Assembly (NCBI GenBank): GCA_046116545.1
Contig: CP175956.1
Location: 705,734-769,733 of the forward strand
Direction of reading: 5' to 3'
DNA: 64,000 nucleotides
Source of the DNA: Candidatus Moraniibacteriota bacterium
Lineage (GTDB): Bacteria; Patescibacteriota; Minisyncoccia; Moranbacterales; GCA-2747515
In this document: piece after piece, positions 10,481-26,177 of the stretch
Position numbering within the stretch: the stretch's first letter is position 1
Layout: every line of letters begins with the position of its first letter
The notes under the pieces: model-generated
Databases searched by the model: none
What the model saw: the letters and a program-made list of their open reading frames with translations, nothing else
Told to the model about the DNA's origin: nothing
Position numbers and translations under genes: made by a program

Positions 10481-12184
10481 CTATTTTTTATTCTGATTTA
10501 GTTTTTCCTTAACATTAGGCATTATTAACCATTGTCTCTTTTCTAACCATTCTCCAGCTACATATTTCATGATAATCTTTACAATTACAATTGCTGTAAA
10601 CATTGACACTAGCACACCGATTATCAAGATAAGTGCGAAACCTTTTACAAAACCAGTTCCCATGGCCATTAGTATCAATGAAGTAATAATTGTTGATAAA
10701 TTACCATCTCGTATAGATGGCCATGCTCGACGAAAGCCTTCATCAACTGCCCTTTTGATATTCTTACCCATTCTTAGCTCTTCTTTAATTCTTTCAAAAA
10801 TAAGTACATTTGCATCCACTGCCATACCTACAGAAAGTACAAGCCCTGCTATCCCAGCCAAAGTCAACGTAATTGACATGGGAGTAAGGCCTGAGAGTTT
10901 AAATATTGAAATAAGTGTTGCCGCATAAATACCTAGAGCCACCGAAGCAATAATCCCAAAGAATCTGTAATACAAAATCATATAGATCATAACCAAGACT
11001 AACCCTAACAAACCAGCTCGCATACCTTTTTGCAACGCTTCTGCTCCAAGAGTCGCTTCAATGCTTTGTTGAGATACTAGCTCAAAGGGCACTGGCATAG
11101 CACCCTCATTCAAACTTCTAGCCAGCTCTTTTGCTTCTTCTATTTCGAAATTTCCTGAAATAACAGCAGTTCCATCAACTATCTCAGCCTGTACAGTAGG
11201 CGCACTAACAACCTGATTGTCAACATAGATTGCTACTGTTTTACCAAGATTTCTCTTTGTAATGTCAGCAAACATCTTTGCACCATCTGAATTAAAAGAC
11301 AATGTAACTTGTGGTTCAGATGCTCCAACTCCATTGCTATACCCAGCCATTGCATTATCTAAAAATTCCCCAGTTAAATCAGTGTTTTTATAAGGATCTG
11401 CAGGCACAGTCATTTTTGCAAACAAAATGTGTTGACCTTTTACTTCTCTGTCATCACCCTCACCCCGAGATTCTAATTTCTTTATAATATGCCAACCAAA
11501 ATCAGTCTCAACTAATTCTTGATTAGTATCACCATCATTCATGTCCTCATTAAACAACACATCATCAAATTCTGGTACATATTGACCTCTTTTTACAAAT
11601 TCAAGCTCACCGCCATTTTCTGCACTTCCTGGGTCCTTACTAAATTCTTTTGCTAACTCAGAAAAATCTTCACCATTTTTTATTCTTTCCAATACAGCAT
11701 CAGCTTCTTCTTTGTTCTCTTCATTCATTGGCGCAAGCATTTCCTCCATTTGTTTTTTATCATTTTCAACCTCTTCCTCAGTCTTTTCTTCTTTAAATTG
11801 CAAAATAGGTGCTTTTTGTATCACATTTTTAACATCCTCAGCATTTTCAACACCAGGGATCTCTACAGTCATAAACGTATCACTACCTCGCTCTGCCAAC
11901 CATACAATAGGCTCTCCTACACCATATGCATTAATTTTTCGCTCTGCTGCTGCTTGTACAGCGTCCTTTGCAGCATCTTTTTGATCATTTGGCGTATTTG
12001 ACAAATCTAACAAATACTCAAGATGTAACCCACCTTGCAAATCAAGTCCTAAATTAATTGCTACTTTATCAAACTTACTTTGAATATTTTCTGGCATATA
12101 CTGAACAAATGGCAATGCTATAATTGCCATAATAAGAGTAAACACCACTACATATATAAACTTTCTTCTATTTTTCTTGTACAT
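10481..12184 (-). CDS. secD: protein-export membrane protein SecD with an inserted parvulin-type PPIase domain
   Basis: SecD hallmarks (DLQGGLHLEY; P1-head segment TVAIYVDNQVVSAPTVQAEIVDGTAVISG; 6 C-terminal TM helices). A PpiC/parvulin signature (FSELAKEFSKDPGSAENGGELEFVKRGQYVPEFDDVLF...FGWHIIKK) is inserted at residues ~150-245. Confidence 0.85.
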   Translation of the reverse strand: MYKKNRRKFIYVVVFTLIMAIIALPFVQYMPENIQSKFDKVAINLGLDLQGGLHLEYLLDLSNTPNDQKDAAKDAVQAAAERKINAYGVGEPIVWLAERGSDTFMTVEIPGVENAEDVKNVIQKAPILQFKEEKTEEEVENDKKQMEEMLAPMNEENKEEADAVLERIKNGEDFSELAKEFSKDPGSAENGGELEFVKRGQYVPEFDDVLFNEDMNDGDTNQELVETDFGWHIIKKLESRGEGDDREVKGQHILFAKMTVPADPYKNTDLTGEFLDNAMAGYSNGVGASEPQVTLSFNSDGAKMFADITKRNLGKTVAIYVDNQVVSAPTVQAEIVDGTAVISGNFEIEEAKELARSLNEGAMPVPFELVSQQSIEATLGAEALQKGMRAGLLGLVLVMIYMILYYRFFGIIASVALGIYAATLISIFKLSGLTPMSITLTLAGIAGLVLSVGMAVDANVLIFERIKEELRMGKNIKRAVDEGFRRAWPSIRDGNLSTIITSLILMAMGTGFVKGFALILIIGVLVSMFTAIVIVKIIMKYVAGEWLEKRQWLIMPNVKEKLNQNKK

Positions 12185-12913: not shown

Positions 12914-13423
12914 TTATTTAATAACTTTATTATCTTCCAATTCTTTATTTGCCTCTATTAAAATATTTCTTGCATTTTTAAATGTTAGTTTATTCAACCC
13001 GTCTTCAAATTTTAACCATTGAAATTTTTGATGTTCATGTGAAATTACCACATCTTCATCCATAGCTTCTACTAAATAAAAAATTGCTTTTTTATAAATA
13101 TAAATACAACTTTTATCTTTTTTTCGATCAATTAGCTCTTGTCCACGAGCTTTGTATGAAAATTTCATATATTCACGAAAACTATTTATCACTCTAACAT
13201 GTGAAATCCCAGTCTCTTCTTCTATTTCTCTTTTCATTGTTTCTTGCTCGCTTTCATTGTCTTCAACTTTCCCACGAGGAAACTCCCAATGTCCATTACG
13301 ATATTTCATTAATAGAAATTCAATTTTTCCATGTGTAATACGAAAAACTATCGCACCAACTGATTTTTCAAATGCGATACAATAAGGAGCTAAAAATTGT
13401 GGAAATTGTCTTCTTTTTATCAT
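12914..13423 (-). CDS. NUDIX hydrolase
   Basis: Canonical Nudix box GKVEDNESEQETMKREIEEETGI. Confidence 0.8.
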   Translation of the reverse strand: MIKRRQFPQFLAPYCIAFEKSVGAIVFRITHGKIEFLLMKYRNGHWEFPRGKVEDNESEQETMKREIEEETGISHVRVINSFREYMKFSYKARGQELIDRKKDKSCIYIYKKAIFYLVEAMDEDVVISHEHQKFQWLKFEDGLNKLTFKNARNILIEANKELEDNKVIK

Positions 13424-21222: not shown

Positions 21223-24200
21223 CTATACAACAATGCTGATAAGCTTTCCTTGTACAAAAATTACTTTTCTTACTTCTTTCCCGTCTATGTGTTTTTGTAC
21301 ATTTTCACTTGCTAATGCTTTTTCTGTTGCTTCTTCTTCTGTTATTCCTGTTGCTACACTTATTTTATCTCGTACCTTACCATTTACTTGTACAACTAGT
21401 TCTATTTCATCATCTACCAAATACTTTTCATCATATTCTGGCCAACTTTCTTCTATCAAAAATGTATTATTGCCCATCTCACTCCATAACTCTTGTGTTA
21501 AGTGTGGTGCAAAAGGTGACAGTACTTTTAAGAATTTACCAAAGTCTTCACTAGAAATACTTTTTTCAGTCTCTATTTCATTTGAAAGCATCATCATTGC
21601 ACTTATTGCTGTGTTGTATTTCATGTCTTCTATATCTTCTCCTACTTTTTTGATTGTTTTGTTTAATGTTCCTTTTAGCTTTTTAGATGTTTCAGCTTCT
21701 GTCCATTCACTATGATAAATCTTCCAAATCCTCTCCAAAAACTTTCTCGGACCAACAAGTCCATCAGTACTCCAAGCAACTGACGCATCAAATGGTCCCA
21801 TGAACATTTCATATACTCTGAATGTATCAGAGCCAAACCTATCGATTATATCATCAGGATTTATAACATTACCCCAACGCTTACTCATCTTACGTCCATC
21901 CTCTGCCATGATAAGTCCAACTGTCTGTAATTTTGAAAACGGTTCGTCATATGAAACAACTCCTATGTCATATAAGAACTTATGCCAAAATCGTGCATAA
22001 ATAAGATGTCGTGTAGCATGTTCTGCTCCACCTACATAAAAATCAACTGGTGACCAATATTTTTCTTTATCTTTATCAATTAATGCACTATCATTTTTTG
22101 GATCAATATACCTCAAGTAATACCAACTAGACCCAGCCCATTGTGGCATAGTATTTGTCTCACGCTTAGCCGGACCACTACACTCAGGACACTCAGTATT
22201 CACCCAGTCGTCAATTGCAGCAAGTGGTGATTCACCTGTTCCCGTTGGCTCATAGCTTTCCACCTCTGGAAGTATTAACGGTAGTTCATCTTCTGGCACA
22301 GTAACAACTCCACACTTCTCACAATGAATTAAAGGGATAGGTTCTCCCCAATACCTCTGACGACTAAACACCCAATCACGAAGCTTATAACTAGTAGTCA
22401 TTTCACCACCAGCCTTCTGCGTAATTGCTTCTTTAGCATCTTCTGAATCCATGCCATCAAATTCTCCAGAATTAACCATGATACCCGTTCCTGTAAAAAC
22501 TTTATCATTATTTATTTTATCCCACATAAATCTTTGACCTCCTGCTACAATTGCACTCTCCACTTCTTTCGCTGTCATCCATACGATATCATGTTTTACT
22601 TTTTCTTCATCACTTACTACATTTTGTTCATCACTTTCTAATTCAAAATAAAATGATTCAAAATGTGCAAATCTGTTAACATTTTTTGGATTATGAAAAA
22701 ACTTACTATGTGATTTACCTAAATTTTTAATCAATTTTAAATTTTTATAACCAGTCTCTTCTAAAATCTCAGTTCGTGCTGCTTCTTGGGCAGTTTGACC
22801 TTCTTCAATTCCTCCTGTAATAAATGTAATCCAAGCTACTTTCTTCCACTTTAATGTTAAATATTTATCTTCTTCCCAATGTTTCACAATTGCGGTAATT
22901 GTATCTCTTTCTATAAATTCTAAATCTTTTTTTGGTGCACTACTTTTTGTTTTATCTATAAATAATGGTTCTACAACTTCTTGCATATCAACGTCATATT
23001 TCTGAGCAAACTCAAAATCACGCTCATCATGAGCAGGTACTGCCATAATTGCACCAGTTCCATAATCAGCCAAAACATAATCTGCAATGAAGATTGGAAT
23101 TTCTTCGCCATTAACTGGATTTACTGCCATCACACCCTCAAGCCTTACACCTGTCTTTTCTTTTCCTTCAGCAGTTCGCTCAATCTCAGTTTTTGCTTGT
23201 GTTTGCTTTTGATACTCTGCAACTTCACTTCTATTTACAATCTCTAATTGTTCAAGTAACCCATGCTCAGGAGCAAGTACCATATAAGTAGCACCATATA
23301 AAGTATCTGGACGTGTTGTAAATACTTTGATGGATTTACCATTATCACTTTTACCTCCAACAGAACTCAGAGACAAACTATGACTGAAATCTAAAATTTC
23401 AACTATAACCTCTGGGAGTTCTTGTTTTATCAGCTTACTACCAAAATGCCCTTTATTATCAAATTTCAAAAATTTTGCATCTAATCCTTTTGCATTTTTC
23501 TCTCCATGTTCAAATGGCACCCAATCATCATCATGCGAATGAAGCACAACAAAATCATCACAATGTTGTTTAATTTTTTCAAAATCATATCCATCTTCAG
23601 TATAAAATCCATGTGTATTTTCTTTTGTATGTTTATCATCAATTTTTGCATAATTAGCAGCAACCAAAATAACTTTTTTGACTTTAAAATCTTTTGGCTG
23701 TTTTTCTAACCATCTCAAAATTGCAACACCTCCACGAGAATGTCCTATTAAAACTGTATTTTTGTTTGGCTTCAATTCGTCCAATTGAGCTAACCATTCA
23801 TCCATGTATGGATTTTCAGCATTCTTCAGAACTGGTGCCACAAATAAAATACCTTTTTTATTCATTTCTTCAGCAAGCCATAAATACCACTTTTCTTGTG
23901 GGTTTGTGTCCTTTCCATGCATCAAAATAACGTTTTCTTCTTGTTCTACGACTTTTTTTTGCAATAAACTTAAAATTTCTGGCACTTCTTTAACATTTTC
24001 ATCCTCACTCATGTGTCCATATTCTTTTAATATCTGAATATTAGCAATATCACCAAAATTTTCAATATAATACTCTCTTATCTCATCTGTAATCCAACCA
24101 TCCTTTTCACCAAAAATACAATTCATGTATGTAACATTTTGCTTTACCATTTCAATGTCTAAATTTCTATCTTGATAATTTTTAAAAATAATTAGTTCTT

Positions 24201-25263
24201 CTTTTGTTAATTTTTCTTTGAATTGTTCAAAATATAAACTATCTGGTTTTTCAAAACCAACGGGAGCGACAAGAACAAGGTTTTTTATCTTATATTTTTC
24301 TGCTAATTTCATCGCCAAAAGTCCACCCATACTATGTCCAACAACAGAAAAATCTTGAAGATTATTTTTTGCAATTTTTTCTTCTATAAAATTATACCAC
24401 TCATCAAAATCTGGCGTATCCGTATTTGGTGCATCAAACGCAAATACTCTGTGACCATCTTTTTCTAAAGAATCTTTTAACCACGGAATAAAATCAGTTT
24501 TTGAGCTACTTTCCCAACCATGTAAAATTAAAACATTTTCTTTTAATTCTTCATTCTTAATTCTAAATTCTATATTTGCTCCCTCACTTCGTCCTATCCA
24601 ATTCCTCTGTGATTCTTTGATGCTTTCTTGCCAATCAAGTTTATCTATGTCAGCGAGCATCCTATCTGCATAATCCGTAATTTTTATAACCCATTGTGGA
24701 ATTTTCTTTTTCTCAATCGGTGTATCACATCTCTCACAACAACCATTCTCTAAATCTTCATTTGCAAGTCCCGTTTTGCACGATGGGCACCAGTTAATCG
24801 GTTCATTTGATTGAAATATTAATCCCTTTTTATACATCTGAATAAAAGTCCACTGAGTCCATTTATAAAACTCTGGGTCTGTAGTCGAAATCTCTCGCTC
24901 CCAATCATAATTAAGAGAAATCTTTTCTAATTGTTTTTTAAAGGTTGCAATATTTTTATCCGTTCCTATACGTGGATGTACTTTATTTTTAAGTGCATAC
25001 TGTTCAGCAGGAAGTCCAAAAGCATCCCACCCCATTGGATGAAGTACATTGAAATTTTGCATTTTTTTATACCGAGAGATAATATCTGTTGCAATATAAC
25101 CCTTAGGATGACCCACATGGAGTCCTTCTCCTGATGGATATGGAAACATATCAAGAATATAAAATTTCTCTTTATCAGAGTCCTCTGTCGTTTTATAGAC
25201 ATTTGACTCATTCCATTTTTTACGCCATTTATCCTCAATTTCTTTGTGCTTATAGATTTTCAT
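21223..25263 (-). CDS. leuS: leucyl-tRNA synthetase with inserted tandem alpha/beta-hydrolase domains and a Nudix-like domain
   Basis: HIGH (HVGHPKGY) and KMSKS (KMSKRWGN) motifs; bacterial LeuRS blocks NWIGRSEGA and TTRPDT...AVPAHDERDFEFAQKY. Residues ~236-645 hold two YdeN/RBBP9-type serine-hydrolase domains (GHSMGG, GHSRGG). Residues ~781-920 hold a Nudix-like domain (WITFITGGIEEGQTAQEAARTEILEETGY). Confidence 0.9.
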   Translation of the reverse strand: MKIYKHKEIEDKWRKKWNESNVYKTTEDSDKEKFYILDMFPYPSGEGLHVGHPKGYIATDIISRYKKMQNFNVLHPMGWDAFGLPAEQYALKNKVHPRIGTDKNIATFKKQLEKISLNYDWEREISTTDPEFYKWTQWTFIQMYKKGLIFQSNEPINWCPSCKTGLANEDLENGCCERCDTPIEKKKIPQWVIKITDYADRMLADIDKLDWQESIKESQRNWIGRSEGANIEFRIKNEELKENVLILHGWESSSKTDFIPWLKDSLEKDGHRVFAFDAPNTDTPDFDEWYNFIEEKIAKNNLQDFSVVGHSMGGLLAMKLAEKYKIKNLVLVAPVGFEKPDSLYFEQFKEKLTKEELIIFKNYQDRNLDIEMVKQNVTYMNCIFGEKDGWITDEIREYYIENFGDIANIQILKEYGHMSEDENVKEVPEILSLLQKKVVEQEENVILMHGKDTNPQEKWYLWLAEEMNKKGILFVAPVLKNAENPYMDEWLAQLDELKPNKNTVLIGHSRGGVAILRWLEKQPKDFKVKKVILVAANYAKIDDKHTKENTHGFYTEDGYDFEKIKQHCDDFVVLHSHDDDWVPFEHGEKNAKGLDAKFLKFDNKGHFGSKLIKQELPEVIVEILDFSHSLSLSSVGGKSDNGKSIKVFTTRPDTLYGATYMVLAPEHGLLEQLEIVNRSEVAEYQKQTQAKTEIERTAEGKEKTGVRLEGVMAVNPVNGEEIPIFIADYVLADYGTGAIMAVPAHDERDFEFAQKYDVDMQEVVEPLFIDKTKSSAPKKDLEFIERDTITAIVKHWEEDKYLTLKWKKVAWITFITGGIEEGQTAQEAARTEILEETGYKNLKLIKNLGKSHSKFFHNPKNVNRFAHFESFYFELESDEQNVVSDEEKVKHDIVWMTAKEVESAIVAGGQRFMWDKINNDKVFTGTGIMVNSGEFDGMDSEDAKEAITQKAGGEMTTSYKLRDWVFSRQRYWGEPIPLIHCEKCGVVTVPEDELPLILPEVESYEPTGTGESPLAAIDDWVNTECPECSGPAKRETNTMPQWAGSSWYYLRYIDPKNDSALIDKDKEKYWSPVDFYVGGAEHATRHLIYARFWHKFLYDIGVVSYDEPFSKLQTVGLIMAEDGRKMSKRWGNVINPDDIIDRFGSDTFRVYEMFMGPFDASVAWSTDGLVGPRKFLERIWKIYHSEWTEAETSKKLKGTLNKTIKKVGEDIEDMKYNTAISAMMMLSNEIETEKSISSEDFGKFLKVLSPFAPHLTQELWSEMGNNTFLIEESWPEYDEKYLVDDEIELVVQVNGKVRDKISVATGITEEEATEKALASENVQKHIDGKEVRKVIFVQGKLISIVV

Positions 25264-25324
25264 AATTAAAAATACGATAAAGTTATATCTATAACCTTAT
25301 CGTATTTTGATGTTTTTTTCAAAC
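25263..25324. repeat. 62-nt direct repeat copy 1 (terminator-like hairpin element)
   Basis: taattaaaaatacgataaagttatatctataaccttatcgtattttgatgtttttttcaaac. Hairpin atacgataag/cttatcgtat plus a T-run. About 90% identical to the copy at 26315-26378. Confidence 0.7.
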
Positions 25325-25657
25325 ACCTGTCGTATTGCGAGGAAGCCCCGCTATCCTACACACATATTCGTACCAACCCTCATCTCTGTTTTGATGCTCA
25401 TATGGAAATATTTTTGTGATTATATTAATATCCACAATATCCTCATCACACAACTCCCCTTGGGTCGGAGGATGCTTTTTTTGTTTGTAATAATTGCGTA
25501 AAAACAGAATGACCTCCCAACATCCAGCATCTTTGATGTGACAATCTGGAAAATGACTTCTACTCCACTTTTCATTCCAATCACAAAACCTTAGCAAGTA
25601 CCCATAACTATCGCTATCATAATCTTCTCTTAAATCATCATACGTATTAACGGCCAT
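25319..25657 (-). CDS. hypothetical protein
   Basis: 112 aa, Cys/Trp/Tyr-rich, inside the repeat-bracketed cassette. Confidence 0.4.
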   Translation of the reverse strand: MAVNTYDDLREDYDSDSYGYLLRFCDWNEKWSRSHFPDCHIKDAGCWEVILFLRNYYKQKKHPPTQGELCDEDIVDINIITKIFPYEHQNRDEGWYEYVCRIAGLPRNTTGV

Positions 25658-25724
25658 AATAATTACCTCCTTGATAGCAAGCTTCTGATTTTAATGTTAA
25701 ATTACTTAGTTTTTTTCAAATACA

Positions 25725-26177
25725 TCAGAATTTTTGACGCATCGGCCTTTTACCTGTAATTTTTTTATCTACCGCGTCAAGGATTAAATCTTCCCCGCCA
25801 ATCCATACACTACCTGATTCACTACTACTGAGGTAGTAACCTTGTGAAGAGCTTAGAAACTCTTCTGCAAGTTGATGGTACTGAAGCATGTTAGTACTGT
25901 TATGTTTATGTGCATATAAGATTGCACTTATCATCGCATGTGATCCTGGTTTAATAAAAATCACACAGTCCGTATTACGATCAATAATTGGCCAAAGCTC
26001 ACATACACGCAAGATTTGCGCAAGATCACACCATGTACGTACAAAATCATTTCGCTGAAAAATCGGCACACAACCTCCACACTCTTTTACAAGATGAGCA
26101 TACAACCAATCTTCAAGTTGTTTGCTTACATTGAATTTTTTAACAAATTCATCAATCGTTATAACAATTTCTTTCAT
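25725..26177 (-). CDS. hypothetical protein
   Basis: 150 aa with no recognisable motif. Confidence 0.4.
   Translation of the reverse strand: MKEIVITIDEFVKKFNVSKQLEDWLYAHLVKECGGCVPIFQRNDFVRTWCDLAQILRVCELWPIIDRNTDCVIFIKPGSHAMISAILYAHKHNSTNMLQYHQLAEEFLSSSQGYYLSSSESGSVWIGGEDLILDAVDKKITGKRPMRQKF

Follow-up and report, generated by a model that had tools for sequence, protein, structure and literature searches.

Why would a leucyl-tRNA synthetase (LeuRS) carry a Nudix domain within its own proofreading domain, CP1? The question is raised by the leuS gene in a stretch of 64,000 nucleotides (referred to here as the window; positions 705,734 to 769,733 of contig CP175956.1, GenBank assembly GCA_046116545.1) from an ultra-small bacterium of the Candidatus Moraniibacteriota. 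A preliminary description, made from the sequence alone, had placed a Nudix-like domain inside the LeuRS editing domain. The Pfam profile, the predicted fold and the mapping of the insert agree with that placement: the segment is a complete Nudix-fold domain inside CP1. It is almost certainly a genuine, inherited insertion.

A complete Nudix-fold domain lies inside the CP1 editing domain

The open reading frame (ORF) at 21223-25263 is the sole long one at this locus, and its reading frame is unbroken. Its product scored 1020 bits against the equivalog model TIGR00396 leuS_bact (cut-off 548.4). The synthetic motifs are HVGH (residues 49-52, corresponding to HIGH) and KMSKR (residues 1125-1129, corresponding to KMSKS), and the editing-site motifs are the threonine-rich TTRPDT (residues 649-654) and AHDERD (residues 744-749). 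The latter two are invariant across 41 Nudix-bearing LeuRS proteins. The host enzyme is of the orthodox bacterial type, its catalytic and editing motifs intact; the Nudix domain is therefore added to a synthetase that keeps its own editing. A public protein from a Candidatus Moraniibacteriota metagenome-assembled genome (MAG) is 100% identical to the window LeuRS (P0052).

Insert borders were mapped by alignment to Thermus thermophilus LeuRS (1h3n). Four colinear blocks were obtained, in which residues 3-241, 645-765, 921-1120 and 1125-1346 align with T. thermophilus residues 3-242, 243-363, 375-579 and 637-876, respectively. This leaves two inserts, residues 242-644 and 766-920. The gene and its parts are as follows.

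21223-25263, minus strand: complete leuS gene, 1346 amino acids, bacterial-type LeuRS with three inserted hydrolase-fold domains (ORF and TIGR00396)
23332-24540, minus strand: insert 1, residues 242-644, at the N-terminal hinge of CP1, two alpha/beta-hydrolase domains (Pfam; profile position 235)
22969-23331, minus strand: CP1 editing domain, first part (residues 645-765), with TTRPDT and AHDERD (aligns to T. thermophilus 243-363)
22504-22968, minus strand: insert 2, the Nudix domain, residues 766-920 in CP1, in place of T. thermophilus 364-374 (alignment)
22747-22815, minus strand: variant Nudix box GGIEEGQTAQEAARTEILEETGY, residues 817-839, within insert 2 (translation and family column statistics)
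21226-22503, minus strand: remainder of LeuRS (residues 921-1346), with the CP1 end (NSGEFDG), the second catalytic half with KMSKR, and the anticodon-binding and C-terminal domains (aligns to T. thermophilus 375-579 and 637-876)

Insert 2 puts about 155 residues in the place of 11 in the T. thermophilus enzyme. It starts about 15 residues past the conserved AHDxRD motif, in a variable surface loop of CP1, where plain LeuRS relatives from the candidate phyla radiation (CPR) have a loop of 9-11 residues (...VISGRxxxDxAYTG...). The Nudix module itself probably starts at E764. The preliminary description had given coordinates of 22506-22923 (residues ~781-920); the segment is the right one, although its N-terminal end was clipped by about 15 residues. 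The flanks quoted there, AVPAHDERDFEFAQKY and TGTGIMVNSGEFDGMD, and the quoted core are exact in the translation.

On its own, insert 2 matched the Pfam NUDIX profile PF00293 with E=9.6e-14 and 52 bits (cut-off 21.1), and the same profile scored 47.5 bits inside the whole protein. AlphaFold2, run on the insert with a 52-sequence alignment, returned a model with a mean predicted local distance difference test score (pLDDT) of 96.7 and a predicted template modelling score (pTM) of 0.90. The predicted structure has the alpha/beta/alpha sandwich of the Nudix fold. Foldseek matched this model to 545 Nudix chains in the PDB (E<=1e-3), and the top 50 listed were all Nudix proteins. The comparisons that the description had proposed, with PF00293, with MutT-like folds and with LeuRS homologues, thus came out in its favour: the insert scores above the profile cut-off, the predicted fold and its structural matches are Nudix, and the alignment sets the borders of the insert. 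An ordinary lineage-specific loop is refuted by the Nudix fold and by the short loop of the plain relatives.

The insert is at most 23% identical to any solved structure, a level too low for assignment to a particular Nudix subfamily. By sequence profile the best PDB match was lupin diadenosine tetraphosphate (Ap4A) hydrolase (E=1.4e-8, in the box region only). The nearest characterised relatives cleave dinucleoside polyphosphates (ApnA), diphosphoinositol polyphosphates or RNA 5' polyphosphate ends, and identity to the characterised ApnA/RppH-type enzymes does not exceed 21%.

The variant Nudix box marks a conserved subfamily

The Nudix-box consensus is GX5EX7REX2EEXGU, of 23 residues (PMC9283932). 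The box of insert 2 reads G817-x5-Q823-x7-T831-E832-I-L-E835-E836-T-G838-Y839 and agrees with the consensus at seven of nine specified positions. The deviations are Q823 for the Glu of GX5E and T831 for the Arg of RE, an Arg being found one position earlier. Insert 2 is thus without a canonical 23-residue Nudix box, and it retains the metal-binding glutamates of E-U-x-E-E (E832, E835 and E836). The preliminary description had recorded the second of these departures, R-T-E for R-E, correctly and had missed Gln823.

A hidden Markov model (HMM) of the family was built from 87 inserts at this site of LeuRS proteins (site 2, below). Members were defined by a full-length match of ~150 amino acids at >=130 bits together with R786, K860, N863, R864 and W895. 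The window domain scored 207 bits over model positions 2-150 and has all five of these residues. Column statistics over 185 family domains separated two subfamilies by the residues at the two deviant box columns. In the canonical or E-type (81 domains) these are Glu...Arg; in the Q-type (97 domains, the window copy included) they are Gln...Ala/Met/Thr/Val/Ser/Glu/Arg, with the pattern GX5Q...x-E-U-x-EE. The combination of Gln with Arg was seen in one domain, and that of Glu with a non-basic residue in none of the 185.

Both subfamilies keep R786, G817, G818, E832, E835, E836, T837, G838, Y839, K860, N863, R864, L875 and W895. The glutamates E832, E835 and E836 are conserved at 100%, 88% and 100% in the Q-type and at 100%, 99% and 100% in the E-type, and the five membership residues are at least 90% conserved in each. 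Of the family's set of basic and aromatic residues, the window copy has R786, K860, N863, R864, H891 and W895. Further positions conserved in the Q-type include W806, K807, W811, T816, H857, P859, H867 and H891, and conservation overall is higher in the Q-type than in the canonical type. This strong constraint indicates that the Q-type domain is not decaying. The box had been called a variant, and that term proves apt: it belongs to a conserved subfamily with the glutamate triad kept and is not a degenerating one-off.

Q-type domains are ~50% identical to one another, whether they stand at site 1, at site 2 or in a free-standing protein, and ~35% identical to E-type domains. A neighbour-joining tree placed 173 of the 185 domains consistently with the Q-type/E-type split; the tree is distance-based and midpoint-rooted and supports nothing finer than this division. 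The domains most similar to the window copy are the Q-type ones at site 2 in its nearest LeuRS relatives (72-77% identity), which is consistent with vertical inheritance.

Nudix insertions are widespread among Patescibacteria LeuRS proteins

We aligned the 120 closest LeuRS relatives, from Patescibacteria/CPR, to a profile of 15 insert-free relatives. Insertions fell at two sharp hot spots, profile position 235 (site 1, holding 160-550 amino acids) and profile position 369 (site 2, usually ~150 amino acids). By the family HMM, 95 of the 120 proteins have one to three Nudix domains each, which makes 134 in total. The architectures included the following.

Single canonical (E-type) domain at site 2: 21 of 120
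Single Q-type domain at site 2: 20 of 120
Q-type domain at site 1 and E-type domain at site 2: 9 of 120
Tandem E-type and Q-type domains at site 1 and E-type domain at site 2: 7 of 120
Non-Nudix domains at site 1 and Q-type domain at site 2 (the window's own architecture): 3 of 120

CPR LeuRS proteins with three Nudix domains (P0069, P0072, P0073, P0075, P0077, P0081, P0085, P0089 and others) reach 1300-1560 amino acids. A Nudix domain in LeuRS is therefore a lineage-wide and often multi-copy feature of Patescibacteria. The fusion had at one point appeared to be unique, as a word-index search with the insert gave only free-standing proteins of 150-220 amino acids; full-length and exhaustive searches showed this to be an artefact of sensitivity.

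Other LeuRS proteins in the set carry HAD (PF13419), Ham1/ITPase (PF01725) or PDDEXK_3 (PF13366) domains; among non-Nudix inserts, only the two alpha/beta hydrolases of the window protein were mapped to a hot spot. These two make up insert 1, with Pfam matches to Abhydrolase_1 (E=6e-18) and Ser_hydrolase PF06821 (E=1.3e-32, residues 446-619), and both of their G-x-S-x-G nucleophile elbows are intact (GHSMG, residues 309-313, and GHSRG, residues 507-511). Together with the Nudix domain they account for the three extra hydrolase-fold domains that had been noticed in this synthetase. The presence of esterase-type domains beside an aminoacyl-ester editing site is a notable pairing in its own right.

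The Nudix family is nearly confined to aminoacyl-tRNA synthetases

Q-type patterns searched against GTDB species genomes retrieved 62 loci, in a survey biased towards Q-type copies by its Q-type-only alignment. Nearly all were labelled Patescibacteria (Moraniibacteriota, Paceibacterota, Nomurabacteria, Kaiserbacteria, Staskawiczbacteria, Colwellbacteria and Saccharimonadales). Q-type LeuRS genes were also found in MAGs titled Candidatus Nanoarchaeia (L061) and Gammaproteobacteria (L021 and L027), for which mislabelled bins or horizontal transfer are possible explanations. Forty-three of the 62 copies lie within LeuRS, 3 are free-standing and end at the start of leuS, and 16 are free-standing elsewhere. 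Counted over 20 distinct free-standing loci, four abut leuS (L002 6001-9410, L034, L037 and L065). There, the end of the free-standing Q-type gene is within a few bases of the leuS start, the LeuRS encoded next to it bears a more divergent Nudix insert of its own, and the two genes look like an operon-like pair. Apart from leuS (3 of 19), no recurrent neighbour was found for the 19 free-standing copies. Sua5 adjoins both the window's leuS and one free-standing Nudix copy.

An EPLFID strand in the free-standing genes was considered as a possible remnant of CP1, which would have shown descent from LeuRS. Plain LeuRS proteins lack this strand, so that EPLFID is part of the Nudix module and is compatible with transfer in either direction. 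A 157-amino-acid free-standing Nudix protein (L001 6001-6474, GCA_028286545.1) is publicly named "leuS".

The family HMM, searched exhaustively against 1.84 billion representatives, matched 510 proteins at E<=1e-10, of which 169 reached E<=1e-30. The best 149 representatives comprised 106 with LeuRS segments, 3 LeuRS editing-domain fragments, 33 of free-standing size and 1 prolyl-tRNA synthetase (ProRS). In all, five ProRS clusters (P0291 and P0321-P0324) carry a family Nudix domain (141-192 bits), which is located between the anticodon-binding and C-terminal domains and is up to 56% identical to the family domains examined, both LeuRS-embedded and free-standing. In some of the ProRS copies the box loop is shorter and the Arg is missing; all keep E-x2-EE. 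The host enzymes are of the archaeal type and apparently come from DPANN archaea; database labels put the nearest relatives without the insert in Nanoarchaeota or Woesearchaeota.

The window also holds a stand-alone Nudix gene, which the preliminary description had correctly listed as canonical.

12914-13423, minus strand: separate Nudix gene, 169 amino acids, with the canonical box GKVEDNESEQETMKREIEEETG (PF00293 E=1.3e-15)

Its score against the family HMM was 38 bits, compared with ~200 for members, so that it is a distant generic relative outside the family.

On these sequence comparisons the family is almost dedicated to aminoacyl-tRNA synthetases. Recruitment by both class I and class II synthetases and the leuS-adjacent free-standing copies argue that the domain is relevant to synthetase chemistry, and a functional tie between the family and synthetases is probable.

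Function of the Nudix domain

A two-domain model of CP1 plus Nudix (residues 636-965) had a pLDDT of 90.7 and a pTM of 0.84. This pTM is higher than is usual for two freely hinged domains of similar size and suggests that the Nudix domain is packed in a fixed position on CP1.

We favour the reading that the domain is an active pyrophosphohydrolase coupled to synthetase chemistry, and we put the probability of this at roughly 55%. It would be a working Mg2+/Mn2+-dependent enzyme held on CP1, and its substrate would be a nucleotide polyphosphate that synthetase reactions have in common. The chance that the domain is catalytically active is a little better than even. The best-guess substrates are Ap4A and diadenosine triphosphate (Ap3A), by-products that synthetases form from the aminoacyl-adenylate and ATP or ADP; ApnA would be destroyed, and ATP recycled, at its source in organisms unable to make nucleotides de novo. 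ApnA is made mainly by synthetases, and Nudix enzymes are a main route of its removal (PMC4734340; PMC9283932). An ApnA-like substrate is a weak assignment, with odds well below even.

Several observations weigh against an active, synthetase-coupled enzyme. The two unmatched box positions (Q823 and T831) could lower or abolish catalysis, and the switch from Glu/Arg to Gln/x divides two clades, so that the covariation may reflect one event. Unrelated alpha/beta hydrolase, HAD, Ham1 and PDDEXK domains are inserted in the same LeuRS lineage, and the CP1 loops may therefore be merely permissive landing sites. No LeuRS lies within 6 kb of 16 of the 19 free-standing copies. The likeness to ApnA hydrolases is weak (the identities of at most 21% noted above) and concerns mostly the box itself, and the top match by structure (2azw) is a protein with no assigned function; the substrate is accordingly a guess.

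The departures at Q823 and T831 are also the starting point of a different explanation, which we regard as unlikely, that the Q-type has lost its Glu/Arg pair and is a non-catalytic module for ligand sensing, tRNA binding, scaffolding or dimerisation. In one form of it, the Q-type might partner canonical E-type domains adjoining it in other LeuRS proteins, and in 12 of the 120 LeuRS proteins a Q-type or near-Q domain does directly follow an E-type domain as a tandem at site 1. However, the Q-type is the sole family member in 23 of the 120, the window's included, so an E-type partner in cis is not required, and free-standing Q-type genes exist. The metal-binding glutamates, moreover, are 88-100% conserved in the Q-type, which has the same basic residues as the canonical type.

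Catalysis might also serve a step that is new. It is conceivable, though we consider it rather improbable, that the synthetase-dedicated Nudix family performs a quality-control or housekeeping step physically coupled to aminoacylation. Such a step might be the destruction of Ap4A/Ap3A, or of similar dinucleotides derived from the adenylate, at the synthetase producing them, or the repair of a pyrophosphorylated or ADP-ribosylated tRNA 3' end presented by CP1. CPR LeuRS and some DPANN ProRS would then be multi-enzyme machines with an extra catalytic cycle, and the Q-type and E-type domains would divide the labour.

Less probable again is that the domain is a passenger, a house-cleaning Nudix enzyme in a permissive CP1 loop that is kept for co-expression or genome economy and has no mechanistic tie to LeuRS. 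The assortment of alpha/beta hydrolases, HAD, Ham1/ITPase and PDDEXK domains taken up at the insertion sites would fit such a history, as would the distance of most free-standing copies from leuS and the variable nature of the site-2 loop, which holds unrelated inserts of ~30 amino acids in some relatives. Set against this are the near confinement of the family to synthetases (at least 110 of the best 149 representatives), its independent recruitment by class II ProRS in archaea, the adjacency to leuS of 4 of the 20 distinct free-standing loci, and the predicted fixed packing on CP1 (pTM 0.84); the generic Nudix gene of the window, furthermore, is outside the family. That there is no real domain here, the segment being an ordinary loop, a chimeric assembly, or an intein or another mobile element, can be dismissed, as nothing supports it beyond the site being a variable loop in other LeuRS proteins, whereas the insert folds as one Nudix domain in a high-confidence prediction, the 28 Pfam matches for the protein and the insert include no Hint, intein or homing-endonuclease family, the frame is unbroken, and the same architecture occurs in more than 100 independently assembled proteins.

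Genomic context

The neighbours of leuS are ordinary cellular genes, encoding SecA, SecDF, Dxr, Sua5 and an ExoX-like exonuclease. Immediately upstream of leuS, at 25319-26177 on the minus strand, are two small ORFs (112 and 150 amino acids) rich in Cys, Trp and His. The SecD/SecF-type protein (10481-12184, minus strand) has a peptidyl-prolyl isomerase (Rotamase) domain at residues ~154-238, between the N-terminal P1 segment of SecD and the P1 head, and is thus another case in this genome of a domain inserted in a housekeeping protein. Over the window (1-64000) the GC content is 28-36% and the GC skew strongly negative. Genes from ~2.4 to 38 kb are nearly all on the minus strand, and the skew flattens in a block of plus-strand genes at ~38.5-48.5 kb. 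No tRNA gene was found in the 64 kb. The window LeuRS is itself named inconsistently, as "alpha/beta fold hydrolase" at NCBI and "leucyl-tRNA synthetase" at JGI.

Comparison with known systems and significance

The window domain shares its fold, its small single-domain size and the E-U-x-E-E helix with Nudix enzymes of the ApnA, RppH and diphosphoinositol polyphosphate phosphohydrolase (DIPP) groups (lupin Ap4A hydrolase 1f3y, Aquifex Ap4A hydrolase 3i7u, T. thermophilus Ndx1, Rv2985 and E. coli RppH). It differs from them in sequence (at most 21% identity), in lacking the Glu of GX5E and the Arg of RE, and in being embedded in a synthetase and not free-standing. The Enterococcus faecalis MutT/nudix protein 2azw is free-standing and 20% identical, and its PDB title names no specific function, so that it offers no functional lead. 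Nudix folds that are non-catalytic, such as the MutY C-terminal domain, mitoribosomal mL46, NrtR and AraR, typically lack the catalytic glutamates, whereas in the window family these are strictly conserved.

Compared with the CP1 domains of bacterial LeuRS (T. thermophilus 1h3n and E. coli 4aq7), the window enzyme has the same HIGH, KMSKS, Thr-rich and AHDxRD motifs. It differs in having 403 extra residues at the N-terminal hinge of CP1 and 155 residues for an 11-residue loop, and in lacking the leucine-specific domain: in the alignment to 1h3n, T. thermophilus residues 580-636 have no counterpart, the gap falling between residues 1120 and 1125 of the window enzyme. The NCBIfam family NF040702, 'isoleucine--tRNA ligase, N-acetyltransferase domain-containing', is likewise a class Ia synthetase with an extra catalytic-type domain; compared by family name only, it concerns another domain (GNAT) and another enzyme.

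In the open-access full-text literature we found no publication that describes a Nudix domain within LeuRS or another synthetase, and we found no curated family for the LeuRS-Nudix architecture. LeuRS-Nudix proteins are already public, with automatic Pfam matches and inconsistent names. Apparently, then, a known domain and a known enzyme are joined here in an undescribed, lineage-wide and multi-copy architecture.

Synthetases are among the best-studied enzymes, and domains added to them have repeatedly exposed new biology. Here, across a whole bacterial radiation, the proofreading domain of LeuRS has acquired one to three Nudix domains, often beside esterase-type, HAD or ITPase domains, and the same Nudix family stands in the ProRS of unrelated ultra-small archaea. 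This second, unrelated synthetase host argues for a functional link of Nudix chemistry to aminoacylation. If the substrate is Ap4A-like, the fusion would bear on whether the dinucleoside polyphosphates made by synthetases are signals or waste, and would offer a simple, purifiable system for that question.

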